A stretch of DNA of 64,000 nt from an uncultured Candidatus Saccharibacteria bacterium (GCA_964479005.1 CAYZJA010000002.1:161278-225277); one strand, 5' to 3'; positions 8,918-15,008 are shown, counted from the first letter of the stretch. Translations and numbers: made by a program. Notes: generated from the sequence alone by a model not told the origin.

Positions 8918-8989
8918 GGGCGACTAGCTCAGTGGTAGAGCGCGTCTCTGATAAAGACGAGGTCACAAGTTCGATCCTTGTGTCGCCCA
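8918..8989 (+). tRNA. tRNA-Ile (anticodon GAT)
   Basis: Acceptor GGGCGAC/GTCGCCC, anticodon stem-loop CGTCT-CTGATAA-AGACG, T loop TTCGATC. This is the classical 16S-23S spacer tRNA. Confidence 0.9.
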
Positions 8990-9004
8990 CAATTTTCCTC
9001 CATC

Positions 9005-9080
9005 GGGCCCGTAGCTTAATTGGTAGAGCGCCTGTGTTGCATACAGGAGGTTGTCGGTTCGAGTCCGATCGGGTCCACCA
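9005..9080 (+). tRNA. tRNA-Ala (anticodon TGC) with G3:U70 identity pair and an encoded CCA
   Basis: Acceptor GGGCCCG/CGGGTCC includes the G3-U70 wobble. Anticodon stem-loop CCTGT-GTTGCAT-ACAGG. Ends ...ACCA. Confidence 0.9.
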
Positions 9081-9116
9081 CGTTAGACGTGGTCCACCAC
9101 GTTAAACGTGGTGGAC
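9076..9116 (+). repeat. Tandem palindromic hairpins (CCACG-TTAGA-CGTGG and TCCACCACG-TTAAA-CGTGGTGGA) abutting the tRNA-Ala 3' end; this family recurs at 62068, 62482 and 63473
   Basis: Perfect inverted repeats read directly from the sequence. The first stem includes the tRNA CCA. Confidence 0.7.
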
Positions 9117-9130
9117 TTCAAAATTTCTCC

Positions 9131-9159
9131 TTGCTTGACTAAGCTATATCTTATATAAT
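9131..9159 (+). promoter_or_regulatory. Sigma-70-like promoter (TTGCTT, 17 nt, TATAAT) for the 9212 gene
   Basis: -35 at 9131-9136 and a perfect -10 at 9154-9159, about 50 nt upstream of the start codon. Confidence 0.5.
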
Positions 9160-12456: not shown

Positions 12457-13172
12457 GGGATACTGCCTTAGTAAAATTCGGCTATATGCTGGAACATCTG
12501 GTGTATCCAAGACTACTATGGTATAATATGACCATAAAAATATGAGTTATAATATACCAAGTAACAATGTTTTTGGCGCAGACAATCAGCAGGAAAGACT
12601 CAGAATTGCTTATTGGATTTTAGGCTTTACTGATGGTGAAGGATGTTTTTCAATTGCTGTGATAGAGAACAAAACTACTAAATTTGGGAAACAGATTTTT
12701 CCTGAATTTGTAATTACACAAGGAGAAAAAAGTTTAACTGCATTAAAGAAAATTAAAAAATTCTTTGGTTGCGGAAACATTTTTATCAACAAACGATATG
12801 ATAATCATAATGAGAACTTATATCGTTATTGTGTACGTTCTTTACATGACTTAGATAAGAAAATAATTCCGTTTTTTGAAAAATATCAACTCCAAACGTA
12901 TAAGCAAAATGATTTTTTAATTTTTAAAAAAGTCATAAAATTCATGATAAAGAAAGAACATTTAACTGAAAAAGGCAGAAAGAAAATTCTTGTCCTCCTC
13001 AGTAAAATGAACCATAGAAAAAAGCGATTTTGAGAATCCTCAGAGACTATATGCCGAACTCCAATATTATATTGGAGAAGATATAGTCCGAACTGCATAG
13101 CGATATGCAGAAATAAGCAGAAATGTTTATTCGACCTTTAGATTGATTTTCTAGAGGTTAGTAACAAAATTG
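12457..13172 (+). mobile_element. Group I intron in 23S at the L1931-equivalent site (between CCUAAGGU and AGCGUAAUUCC, helix 69/70 region)
   Basis: Exon homology breaks after ...CGTTCTAAGGT and resumes at AGCGTAATTCCTTGTCGGGTAA. The upstream exon ends in U and the intron ends in G. Encloses a LAGLIDADG ORF. Confidence 0.8.
12542..13033 (+). CDS. LAGLIDADG homing endonuclease (single-motif, homodimer type), encoded in intron 1
   Basis: 163 aa with motif LGFTDGEGCF near the N-terminus. Lies inside a 23S intron. Confidence 0.8.
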   Translation: MSYNIPSNNVFGADNQQERLRIAYWILGFTDGEGCFSIAVIENKTTKFGKQIFPEFVITQGEKSLTALKKIKKFFGCGNIFINKRYDNHNENLYRYCVRSLHDLDKKIIPFFEKYQLQTYKQNDFLIFKKVIKFMIKKEHLTEKGRKKILVLLSKMNHRKKRF

Positions 13173-13833
13173 AGCGTAATTCCTTGTCGGGTAATTTCCG
13201 ACGTGCATGAAAGGTATAACGACTGGGGAACTGTCTCAACGAGGAGCTCGGTGAAAATGCGTGTCCAGCGAAGACGCTGGGTACCCGCAGCAAGACGAAA
13301 AGACCCTAGAAGCTTTACTACAGCTTGGTATTGAATTTAGTTTTAATCTGCGTAGCGTAGCGGGGAGACTTTGAAGTTTCGCTTTCGGGCGAGATGGAGT
13401 CGCCAATGAAACACCCGTCTTTTTGAAGCTATGTTCTAATCCCGACGGCAAAAACGTCGTGAGACAGTGCCTGGTGGGTAGTTTTCGTGGGGCGCGATCC
13501 TCCTAAAGAGTAACGGAGGAGCCTACTAAGGTTGGCTATCTGCCAATGGAAACGGCAGAGGTAGTGTAAAGGCAAAAGCCAGCTTTATAGTGAGGGAGAC
13601 ATCCCAAACTATTGCGAAAGCAGAGCTTAGTGACCCGATACGTCATTGTAGAATGCGTAGAGACGTCGGATAAAAGCTACTCTAGGGATAACAGGCTGGT
13701 GGAGCCCGAAAGTTCATATCGACGGCTCCGCTCGGCACCTCGATGTCGGCTCATCTTATCCTGGGGCTGAAGAAGGTCCCAAGGGTTTGGCTGTTCGCCA
13801 ATTAAAAAGATACGCGAGCTGGGTTCAGACCGT

Positions 13834-14561
13834 CGATTTGGCGGCCTAGAAGAGTAATCTTCTATGGAAAAAGTTGACTCATATAGATGAAACCCTATTA
13901 CATAAATTGTATTTTAACCTGTCGTGTGGTAGGATAATATCTAGGGAAGTTTAACTTTTTTAAACGTGAAACATCTTTCAAAGACTCAATGTGCTTATAT
14001 CGCTGGGTTTTTAGATGGTGACGGAAGTCTTTATATTAGGATTAAACCTAATAAGGATTATCGGTTTAACTATCAAATAGCCCCCAATATAGTATTTTAT
14101 CAATCCCAAAAAGGATGGTTATTTCTTCAGAAAATTAAAAAAATGATTAGCGCTGGTTATATGAGAAAAAGAAATGACGGGATTGCAGAATATATTATTG
14201 GTGATGTAGCAACAATGTCTTCTTTGTTGAAGCAAATATCTTCATTTCTGATATTTAAAAAGAAACAAGCACAATTGTTTCTAAGAATTCTTCAAAAGAA
14301 AACAAAGGTAAAAACAAAAGAAGATTTTATAGCTTTAGCTATAATGATTGATAAATTGGAAAAATTAAATTATTCCAAAAAAAGGCGCATTACTTCGCAA
14401 GTTGTTATCAACACGTTAAAAAAGTTGTAACCCCTTAGAGACTTGTTCTGGTTTTTACCAGAACGGAATAGAGATTTTTAATCTCTATTAATACGTCAAC
14501 CTCCTAATAAAATATTAGGATGATGGTATAGTCCATACATAAAGTAATTTATGATTATATG
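13834..14561 (+). mobile_element. Group I intron in 23S at the L2593-equivalent site (I-CreI target: ...GACCGU^CGUGAGACAG, in the peptidyl-transferase loop)
   Basis: Exon ...GGGTTCAGACCGT | intron | CGTGAGACAGGTCGG. The junction U/G rule is satisfied with the intron ending ...ATATG. Encloses a LAGLIDADG ORF. Confidence 0.8.
13966..14430 (+). CDS. LAGLIDADG homing endonuclease (I-CreI-like size), encoded in intron 2
   Basis: 154 aa with motif IAGFLDGDGS at residues 11-20. Lies inside a 23S intron at the I-CreI homing site. Confidence 0.8.
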   Translation: MKHLSKTQCAYIAGFLDGDGSLYIRIKPNKDYRFNYQIAPNIVFYQSQKGWLFLQKIKKMISAGYMRKRNDGIAEYIIGDVATMSSLLKQISSFLIFKKKQAQLFLRILQKKTKVKTKEDFIALAIMIDKLEKLNYSKKRRITSQVVINTLKKL

Positions 14562-14898
14562 CGTGAGACAGGTCGGCCTCTATCTGCTGTGGGCGTTCGA
14601 TACTTGAGGAGAGCTGATCGCAGTACGAGAGGACCCGATTGGACGAACCTCTGGTCTACCGGTTGTCCTGCCAAGGGCATCGCCGGGTAGCTATGTTCGG
14701 AAGGGATAAGCGCTGAAAGCATCTAAGCGCGAAGCCCACTCCAAGATTAGGTATCGTTTCCCATTTATGGGAGTGAGATTCCTGGAAGATGACCAGGTTG
14801 ATAGGCTCTAGGTGGAAGTCCAGTAATGGATTAAGCCGAGGAGTACTAATTATCAAAGCAACTTTCCTATCTTTAGTGAAAAGAAATATTTTAAAATT

Positions 14899-15008
14899 CC
14901 GCTGGTGTTTTACTTAATTATGGTCCACCTCTTCCCATTCCGAACAGAGAAGTGAAAGTAATTAAGCCCGATGATACTCTTTTGGGGAAAGTAGGGTATG
15001 CCAGCGGT
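14899..15008 (+). rRNA. rrf: 5S ribosomal RNA
   Basis: Helix I CCGCTGGTG...GCCAGCGG, loop motifs CCGAACAGAGAAGTGAAAG and GGGAAAGTAGGGTATGCC. Sits 38 nt after the 23S 3' end. Confidence 0.85.

Follow-up and report, generated by a model that had tools for sequence, protein, structure and literature searches.

The stretch of DNA analysed here (the window; 64,000 nt, GCA_964479005.1 CAYZJA010000002.1:161278-225277, labelled Candidatus Saccharibacteria) contains a set of ribosomal RNA (rRNA) genes in which the 16S gene lies far from those for 23S and 5S rRNA. This is probably an unlinked rRNA set of the Paceibacteria, within the candidate phyla radiation (CPR), in which the leader of the 23S-5S unit acts as a ribosome-dependent transcription attenuator. 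The evidence is the anatomy of the leader, its conservation, its specificity for 23S genes, covariation between its pairing strands and a signal at the codon level. Coordinates are those of the window. The rRNA and transfer RNA (tRNA) genes were placed using Rfam and ARAGORN, and all placed features are on the + strand. The order at the locus is tRNA-Ile, tRNA-Ala, the gene of a 227-aa membrane protein (msc below) and 23S-5S, and the 16S gene starts 53 kb downstream of the 23S gene. All the elements itemized in a preliminary description of this DNA are present, at or close to their assigned places.

Starting at the promoter P2 and continuing to the 5′ end of the 23S gene, the leader comprises the following elements.

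10011-10038, + strand: promoter P2, TTGACT-16-TATAAT, 11/12 in the consensus scan, homologous to the 23S-leader promoter of relatives
10039-10097, + strand: inserted 59-nt promoter-leader module with two hairpins and an extended -10 element ('P3', TGcAATAAT, 10089-10097), absent from the closest relative L092
10116-10160, + strand: leader open reading frame (ORF) of 14 codons (MKIFKENSQKQRSW) with the stop codon TAG at 10158-10160, an equivalent being present in the spacers of 22/22 relatives
10149-10165, + strand: segment 1 (AGAAGTTGGTAGGTGTA), the anti-terminator strand, overlapping the leader stop codon (RNAduplex -17.0 kcal/mol, z = -4.6 versus shuffles)
10184-10208, + strand: intrinsic terminator, made up of segment 2 (GCCACCA, 10184-10190), the loop CTTCA, segment 3 (TGGTGGC, 10196-10202) and T6 (10203-10208)
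10249-10261, + strand: boxA-like motif GAACTTTGAAAAC, read from the sequence
10279-10303, + strand: 5′ strand of the 23S leader-trailer (processing) helix, complementary to 14859-14883

Segment 1 can base-pair with 10184-10195, the stretch that makes up the terminator's left arm and loop. The leader has the structural elements of a leader-peptide attenuator: an early short ORF, an intrinsic terminator, an anti-terminator that is mutually exclusive with it, and a ribosome position that covers the switching strand. The preliminary description had transcription driven straight into the 23S gene. Instead P2 drives the leader ORF and the terminator/anti-terminator switch, and a terminator-like hairpin follows each of the two promoters upstream of the 23S gene. 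The distance from the T-run to the 23S gene is only 80-120 nt in the window clade, and no promoter match is found after the T-run (10203-10208) and ahead of the boxA-like motif and stem (10249-10303). As no promoter fits after the T-run, transcription of the 23S gene must therefore pass through the terminator.

From this arrangement we infer a direction of switching, termination itself and a physiological signal. The 23S-5S unit would be transcribed from the conserved consensus promoter by way of a leader of ~100 nt. When no ribosome is present at the end of the ORF, the 1:2 anti-terminator should form first, and RNA polymerase would then read on through the boxA-like element and the processing stem into 23S-5S. 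A ribosome located at the leader stop codon would mask segment 1, so that the 2:3 terminator hairpin could form and transcription would end before the 23S gene. The net result would be a negative feedback of translational capacity onto 23S-5S synthesis.

The leader was compared with the msc-23S spacers of 22 relatives. When aligned, the spacers share one conserved promoter, followed by a short segment, a GC hairpin with a T-run, a GTTCTTTGA-type motif and the processing stem. In 20/22 spacers the promoter scores 10-12/12 and the GC hairpin with T-run follows 89-139 nt later; the other two were found to be arranged likewise on inspection, so the layout is present in all 22/22 relatives examined. 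An ATG lies 9-21 nt past the -10 box in 20/20 leaders and opens an ORF of 8-14 codons, except in L052 and L062 where there are 26-27 codons. The stop codon is located inside segment 1 or <=7 nt upstream of it in 19/20 leaders, compared with 3.45 expected when the sequence upstream of segment 1 is shuffled. Cognate 1:2 duplexes have a mean energy of -15.6 kcal/mol and non-cognate duplexes -10.9 kcal/mol, and none of 5000 derangements reaches the cognate value. In the alignment of the window clade 94.8% of the cells of the terminator helix are paired with six double-sided changes (a result reached by 0/500 shuffles), and the anti-terminator is 82.5% paired, versus 33-50% for controls in which the strands were slid.

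The arrangement is specific to 23S leaders. Composite criteria applied to both strands of 1.24 Mb (2.5 Mb of strand) gave 16 matches, all of them 80-363 nt upstream of a 23S gene. The device is absent before the 16S genes of the window organism, where neither leader ORF nor terminator was found, and of L027 and L069. The 16S leader of L052 (7155-7484) contains a promoter, a 7-codon ATG ORF and a hairpin with T-run (CAGGAAGTGTCTTCCTG-GTTTTGTTTT), then GAACTTTGAAAA. This could be an analogous device acting on 16S; no clear segment-1 partner for the left arm of its hairpin was seen.

A scan of metagenomes used the three-segment motif of a distant clade as the only query (GCGGNTRA-N15-45-CCGCTT-N3-9-AAGCGGTTTTT), with no 23S or msc information. 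It returned 80 loci, of which 67 have a 23S gene starting 61-485 nt downstream (median 147). Four of the remainder have no flanking sequence, and the other nine are clear negatives that have no promoter or ORF. A promoter is present at the expected place in 63/67 of the 23S-linked loci, and an ORF that begins with ATG and shares the frame of the motif's stop codon is found in 62/66 leaders having upstream sequence, most commonly with 13 codons; an automated call of the ORF succeeded in 45/62, compared with 3.8 expected. An msc homolog is located just upstream in 33 of the 51 loci with enough flank. A motif similar to the boxA-like one of the window lies between the T-run and the 23S gene in 22/67 loci and in 0/60 control segments.

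The peptides of these metagenomic leaders share a pattern of about MRKxxTILNK[G/R]SG. At the conserved residues the codons vary synonymously (Leu: TTA 12, CTT 4, TTG 4, CTA 2; Asn: AAT/AAC; Thr: ACC/ACA/ACT), which points to translation of the leader ORF. A T-run lies between the leader stop codon and the terminator arm in 54/64 leaders, versus 22 expected, and is a possible pause site at which polymerase and ribosome would be synchronized.

Folding in silico of 66 leaders, with the nascent chain extending as far as the terminator loop, gave structures in which the left arm of the terminator is >=60% paired with upstream sequence in 66/66. In 62/66 the partners of the left arm lie within the footprint of a ribosome with its A site on the leader stop codon. 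When the footprint is forced to be unpaired the terminator forms in 63/66 leaders, and when it is not the terminator is absent in 43/66. The energies of the anti-terminator and terminator states differ by <=3 kcal/mol in 61/66.

A number of points weigh against interpretation of the leader as an attenuator. The evidence for it is computational throughout, and the P-values treat related sequences as independent. Covariation of the 1:2 helix within the window clade is modest (12/500 shuffles reach it). In this clade the minimum-energy fold of the full-length leader retains the terminator (ddG +1 to +6.6 kcal/mol in 7/9). The terminator being the equilibrium fold, a switch there would have to rely on kinetics, segment 1 forming its pairs while segment 3 has yet to be made. 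In the window the 59-nt insertion parts P2 from the leader ORF. The leader has no Shine-Dalgarno sequence and the host 16S rRNA lacks CCUCC; initiation on this short A-rich leader is presumably independent of such a sequence. The sequence of the leader peptide is not conserved between clades, and it contains no run of regulatory codons of the kind that marks the amino-acid-sensing subclass of attenuators; the peptides are rich in Lys, Arg and Asn, without a consistent tandem codon run across clades. A device confined to the 23S leader leaves the balance of 16S and 23S unaccounted for, as the 16S leader lacks it. Lastly, the identification of GAACTTTGAAAAC as a boxA is tentative.

Among other explanations the one that survives best, itself unlikely, is that the promoter, mini-ORF and terminator are a free-standing micro-gene for a small basic peptide or small RNA that happens to lie beside the 23S gene. 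The latter would be transcribed by leaky read-through or from a non-consensus promoter that escaped recognition, and the 1:2 complementarity would have no switching role. The unit does have a complete promoter and terminator, its peptide is conserved at the amino-acid level within one clade, and the equilibrium fold in the window clade is the terminator. Yet such units are found only directly upstream of 23S genes, the 80-120 nt between T-run and 23S in the window clade are filled by the boxA-like motif and the stem with no match to a promoter, segment 1 co-varies with segment 2 across lineages, and the stop codon is placed at segment 1 far above chance.

Rather improbable is an attenuator in which one structure or the other is stabilized by a factor acting in trans (a Nus factor, a small ligand or a free ribosomal protein), the ORF being incidental or secondary. 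The ORF is near-universal and falls in a narrow range of lengths, its start keeps a fixed distance to the promoter and its end lies at segment 1, and its synonymous codon variation indicates translation; moreover the leader has neither a conserved aptamer-like structured domain nor an Rfam match. These observations argue against control in trans, despite the well-supported alternative terminator and anti-terminator structures, the nearby boxA-like element and the attenuation by ribosomal proteins known elsewhere (e.g. L10(L12)4 in B. subtilis, PMC4538822). At permissive thresholds Rfam gave no family for the leader in either the window or L052, with only chance matches to hairpins.

That nothing regulatory is present, the locus being an ordinary unlinked one of CPR with the hairpin and T-run as an insulator or a structure for processing of pre-23S RNA, is highly improbable: CPR bacteria are known to have rRNA introns, genes in the spacer and rRNA genes that are unlinked (PMC8172020, PMC11270868, 10.1101/705046), and leader-trailer helices are general (PMC11404451), but the conserved ORF, the placement of its stop codon, the mutually exclusive pairing and the T-run enrichment (54/64 versus 22) are left unaccounted for. 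The hairpin and T-run were also considered as a boxB-like element or as the terminator of the membrane-protein gene, and this was rejected; a separate terminator of that gene precedes the promoter, and the left arm of the hairpin has a conserved upstream partner.

Within the attenuator model we propose, tentatively and at a little short of an even chance, that the 23S leader is a cis-acting sensor of ribosomes. A ribosome that has translated the 13-14-codon peptide and is parked at its stop codon would flip the anti-terminator into the terminator, and so gauge spare translational capacity and adjust 23S-5S transcription to it. Conservation at the amino-acid level in one clade (...TILNKGSG) may indicate an arrest peptide that prolongs occupancy by the ribosome. 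If correct, a ribosome-sensing 23S leader would put the ribosome feedback model, long debated, into physical form.

Between the stop codon of the membrane-protein gene and P2 there are two further elements.

9899-9926, + strand: promoter P1, a 12/12 match to the sigma-70 consensus (TTGACA-16-TATAAT) with an extended -10 element, from the consensus scan
9929-9990, + strand: terminator-like hairpin and T7 run following the membrane-protein gene, with equivalents in L008, L009, L027 and others

The two dedicated rRNA promoters of the preliminary description, P1 and P2, both match the consensus, and P2 is homologous to the promoter of relatives and near-identical to that of L092. P1 is not conserved; in the spacer alignment the relatives have only the terminator of the membrane-protein gene at this place, and among those compared P1 is specific to the window organism. 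It occupies the gap that the membrane-protein gene's stop codon and the terminator hairpin leave between them, and its transcripts would start in the 5′ arm of that hairpin. MAFFT paired the L092 promoter with the weak P3. This was rejected, since by eye P2 is the true counterpart, with 59 nt inserted after it.

The insert belongs to a promoter-leader module of ~60-75 nt (an AT-rich hairpin, AATTNCAACGTTCT...hairpin, and an end of the form TGnTATAAT) that is present in three copies, at 10039-10097, 63519-63594 and L088 13355-13430. Each begins directly after TATAAT, in the 23S leader, in the 16S leader and before the response-regulator gene past 16S respectively. The module may represent a small cassette, either mobile or duplicated, with -10 boxes as its target, which it would regenerate.

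Upstream of P1 lie the spacer tRNAs and the membrane-protein gene.

8918-8990, + strand: tRNA-Ile(GAT), a relic spacer tRNA (ARAGORN, Rfam)
9005-9080, + strand: tRNA-Ala(TGC), a relic spacer tRNA (ARAGORN, Rfam)
9069-9118, + strand: tandem 19-nt repeat of the tRNA-Ala 3′ end (GGTCCACCACGTTARACGT x2), giving CCACGTTAAACGTGG-type hairpins, seen in the sequence
9131-9159, + strand: promoter of the membrane-protein gene, TTGCTT-17-TATAAT, seen in the sequence
9212-9895, + strand: 227-aa membrane protein, all-helical, with two PF05552 (MS_channel_1st_1) repeats (Pfam E = 8e-14)

tRNA-Ile starts 8 nt past the stop codon of an upstream 71-aa ORF. The two tRNAs are the canonical tRNAs of a 16S-23S spacer, as the preliminary description held, and are the relic of a spacer that contains a protein gene. 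Its further claim that the spacer was invaded by that gene does not hold in the sense of a recent or lineage-specific event. Homologs lie directly upstream of 23S genes across deep branches of the Parcubacteria, and in L052 and L027 the 16S gene is still attached.

In a synteny survey of GTDB genomes, taking one per species and requiring an msc homolog with a 23S gene downstream on the same strand, the homolog is <=1.5 kb upstream of 23S in 13/72 eligible loci and <=3 kb upstream in 16/67. In the protein tree they are dispersed among several deep branches. The position of the gene just upstream of 23S is ancient, and the conserved anchoring of this family there is a new detail. Covariance models place the genes of L052 (a closed Nealsonbacteria genome) in a linked layout, with 16S at 7485-8998, then Ile, Ala, msc at 9986-10663, 23S from 11010 and 5S at 15173-15281. 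L027 (Azambacteria) was found by the same means to be linked like L052, except that additional genes occupy ~5 kb after tRNA-Ala. Most simply, the ancestral order was 16S-Ile-Ala-(variable genes)-msc-23S-5S, from which 16S was removed in this lineage while both tRNAs and the membrane-protein gene remained beside 23S. In L012 (70% msc identity) the upstream synteny as far as tRNA-Leu(CAA) matches that of the window, and the unlinking of 16S therefore predates the split of the two.

The attenuator layout is also present in L052 and L027, where the 16S gene is attached. The transcriptional autonomy of 23S-5S thus appears to be older than physical unlinking, and offers an explanation for the tolerance of rRNA unlinking in Parcubacteria. 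Possession of its own promoter and predicted attenuator by the 23S-5S unit may account for the frequent unlinking of rRNA genes in these bacteria.

The interval from tRNA-Ala to the membrane-protein gene carries cargo that varies between relatives (RNHCP; AdoMet decarboxylase with SDR; an amidotransferase; others; L092-L102). In L011 and L101 tRNA-Ile and tRNA-Ala are also split by genes. In L092 (1572-1745) there is a second partial copy of the 3′ half of tRNA-Ala, 100 nt downstream. The varied cargo and this partial copy suggest a tRNA-associated integration hotspot. Duplication of the tRNA-Ala 3′ end as an integration scar was considered and rejected, as a clear second partial tRNA copy occurs in L092 only. 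The palindromic hairpin CCACGTTAAACGTGG is found at 9078-9111, 62069-62083 and 63476-63490, with variants at 62483-62518 and L088 13279-13295. There are 8 matches to the hairpin and its variants on both strands, with 0 expected by chance. They are located after tRNA genes and directly upstream of the -35 box of the 16S promoter, and possible roles of the hairpin are those of a binding site, a terminator or a signal for processing.

The membrane-protein gene has its own promoter (9131-9159), as described before, and this is conserved; the arrangement TTGCTTGACT...TATAAT is also present in the relatives L096 and L012. A motif AGGTCGA(A/T) at 9177-9184, 30-50 nt before the start codon, is kept at equivalent positions in distant relatives (L096, L011/L101, L012 and L052). 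Homologs of the protein number 345 matches at 40-96% identity, and 30 columns are invariant among 16 diverse members. An AlphaFold model (pLDDT 79) matches the transmembrane helices of MscS only locally, and Foldseek gave no significant global match to the model. The beta-domain of the MscS core (PF00924) was not found, only the transmembrane-helix repeats of PF05552, and the 'msc' model of NCBIfam gives a score of 66.8, its cutoff being 100. As the core is lacking, the protein is not filed as an MscS channel.

The remainder of the 23S-5S unit is organized as follows.

10296-12456, + strand: 23S exon 1, E. coli positions 1-1931 (Rfam, E. coli alignment)
12457-13172, + strand: group I intron at 23S U1931, with a LAGLIDADG_1 single-domain ORF at 12542-13033 (163 aa)
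13173-13833, + strand: 23S exon 2, E. coli positions 1932-2593 (Rfam re-scan, E. coli alignment)
13834-14561, + strand: group I intron at 23S U2593, with an I-CreI/I-MsoI-family LAGLIDADG ORF at 13966-14430 (154 aa)
14562-14866, + strand: 23S exon 3 (Rfam re-scan, E. coli alignment)
14859-14883, + strand: 3′ strand of the 23S processing helix, complementary to 10279-10303
14900-15013, + strand: 5S rRNA (14900-15007) followed by a T-run (Rfam)

The 23S gene extends from 10296 to 14866 in three exons, as found by re-scanning sub-windows with Rfam and by alignment to E. coli rrlH. The preliminary description overlooked these two group I introns and another in the 16S gene. An end at 13864, given by the match of Rfam to the whole window, was rejected; the sub-window scans and E. 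coli alignment identify it as an artefact of the second intron. For both introns the 5′ exon ends with U and the intron with G. Their matches to Rfam Intron_gpI are below the gathering score (E = 2e-5 and 0.008-0.025), and membership of the group I core is moderately supported. The 154-aa protein of the second intron matches I-CreI, I-MsoI and I-CvuI from end to end, at E values of about 1e-26 to 1e-20. Insertion sites at 23S 1931, 23S 2593 and 16S ~1498, with their types of ORF, have been catalogued for CPR bacteria (Tsurumaki et al. 2024, PMC11270868). Compared with these rRNA introns (PMC11270868; I-CreI/I-MsoI in PDB) those of the window are further members, with no notable difference.

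A 158-kb JGI contig ends at ~13753 in 23S exon 2, 80 nt before the site of the second intron. This intron with short flanks (13777-14727) occurs as separate contigs of ~950 nt in Logan assemblies, and its endonuclease is recorded only in such contigs. The breaks would fit either polymorphism in the population for presence of the intron or assembly breaks at conserved rRNA.

The processing stem around the 23S gene that was reported before, of 17 nt, is real (10279-10303 with 14859-14883). The helix has 25 bp including one G.U, and 17 nt on each side are outside the mature 23S rRNA. Leader-trailer helices of this kind are general (PMC11404451). The 3′ end of 5S with its T-run (CCAGCGGTTTTTT, 15001-15013) is repeated at 15201-15214, 200 nt downstream and just before the promoter region of the next gene; the second copy may be what remains of a duplicated 5S end with its terminator.

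The 16S unit lies at the distal end of the window.

63491-63518, + strand: 16S promoter TTGACA-16-TATAAT, followed by the shared leader module and the boxA-like GTGCTCTTTGATAA
63676-64000, + strand: 16S rRNA, first 325 nt of the gene, which is truncated where the window ends and continues in L088

It is preceded by tRNA-Met, tRNA-Met, tRNA-Asp and tRNA-Arg (61998-62688) and two small ORFs. Between both tRNA-Met genes is an ORF for an 89-aa GIY-YIG nuclease (62126-62395), and between tRNA-Arg and the 16S promoter are small Cys-rich ORFs at 62742-63095 and 63217-63456, the latter with a weak match to DUF3795. The 16S and 23S-5S genes are indeed separate transcription units, as proposed earlier; 16S has its own promoter, and the gene that comes next is a response regulator, not Ile/Ala tRNAs or 23S. 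Past the window (L088 10460 onward) the 16S gene contains a group I intron after ~U1495-1498, with a LAGLIDADG_2 ORF. The 3′ exon following it (L088 12238-13090) reads AACAAGGCACCGCTAGCGGAAGCTGGTGGTGAAACTTTTC; helix 45 is intact, and the tail has no CCUCC anti-Shine-Dalgarno sequence. CCUCC is also lacking in the 16S tails of L052 and L069, and is kept in those of L027 and L038. Motifs resembling Shine-Dalgarno sequences are not enriched upstream of 50 long ORFs of the window (18% versus 14% background). A literature search of incomplete coverage found nothing on loss of the anti-Shine-Dalgarno sequence in Patescibacteria.

The assembly is well supported, with >=99.99% identity to independent JGI and Logan assemblies. 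One JGI contig spans 7172-17687 unbroken and others span 1-13753, 1-10426 and 1037-10882; a 551-kb contig bears both the 23S and 16S loci and extends past the 16S end of the window. The unbroken independent contig and the >=99.99% identity exclude a misassembly at ~9.1-9.9 kb, to which the preliminary description had pointed as a means of refuting it. Homologs of the membrane protein have source names of Paceibacterota, Parcubacteria or Minisyncoccia, and the host is a Paceibacteria (Parcubacteria/CPR) bacterium. The 16S gene starts 48.7 kb past 5S on the same strand, where Brewer et al. take a 16S-23S distance >1500 bp as unlinked. For CPR bacteria, rRNA genes that are unlinked and have a spacer holding tRNAs and protein genes have already been described (Lui et al. 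2021, PMC8172020; Brewer et al., bioRxiv 10.1101/705046), and the unlinking and spacer gene seen here are a further example of the arrangement. The likeness to these unlinked sets (PMC8172020; 10.1101/705046) extends to the small genome. The same surveys report neither a particular family of conserved genes anchored ahead of 23S nor a terminator switch with a leader ORF.

The new element is the predicted attenuator before the 23S gene, which follows a known regulatory principle; unlinking of the rRNA genes, a gene in the spacer and the introns belong to kinds already known. Searches of Rfam and the literature found no precedent for a leader-peptide attenuator before rRNA genes, which is weak evidence of novelty, the coverage of the literature being incomplete. 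The device is conserved across a large uncultured class of bacteria with minimal regulatory repertoires and single rRNA gene copies, and it bears on annotation of their genomes and interpretation of their metatranscriptomes.

The classical leader-peptide attenuators are those of the amino-acid operons trp, his, leu and pheA, described by the Yanofsky model. The 23S leader resembles these in having a promoter-proximal short ORF, a terminator before the regulated gene and an anti-terminator that depends on the position of the ribosome, and in that a ribosome at the leader stop codon favours termination. It differs in four respects. It would regulate rRNA rather than a biosynthetic mRNA, it has no run of cognate regulatory codons, and the presumed signal is the availability or activity of ribosomes and not the charging of one tRNA. 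Furthermore it has three segments rather than four, so that absence of translation predicts read-through, not super-attenuation.

Other ribosome-mediated attenuators respond to stress, examples being vmlR, bmrCD and yxjB of B. subtilis and lmo0919 of Listeria. In these, as proposed for the 23S leader, impaired translation of a short upstream ORF turns a terminator into an anti-terminator and switches on a ribosome-related gene. They control resistance proteins or rRNA methyltransferases, whereas the device described here would control 23S-5S rRNA and is conserved across a whole class. Attenuators of this type are responsive to antibiotics or translation stress (PMC6851288).

How rRNA synthesis is matched to translational demand has been debated for forty years, and the known answers act at promoter initiation. 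In the feedback model of Nomura and Gourse an excess of translational capacity is said to lower rRNA synthesis. If correct, a translated leader with a terminator switch before rRNA would be a different and very direct solution. Antitermination in the E. coli rrn leader operates through boxB-boxA-boxC and Nus factors (PMC10250234). The window locus shares with E. coli rrn the tandem strong promoters, the boxA-like element and the leader-trailer helix before rRNA, and the proposed logic of feedback is the same. In E. coli, however, the feedback acts at promoter initiation through NTP, ppGpp and DksA, with no translated leader ORF or regulated intrinsic terminator; in the window the boxA-like element is located downstream of the terminator.

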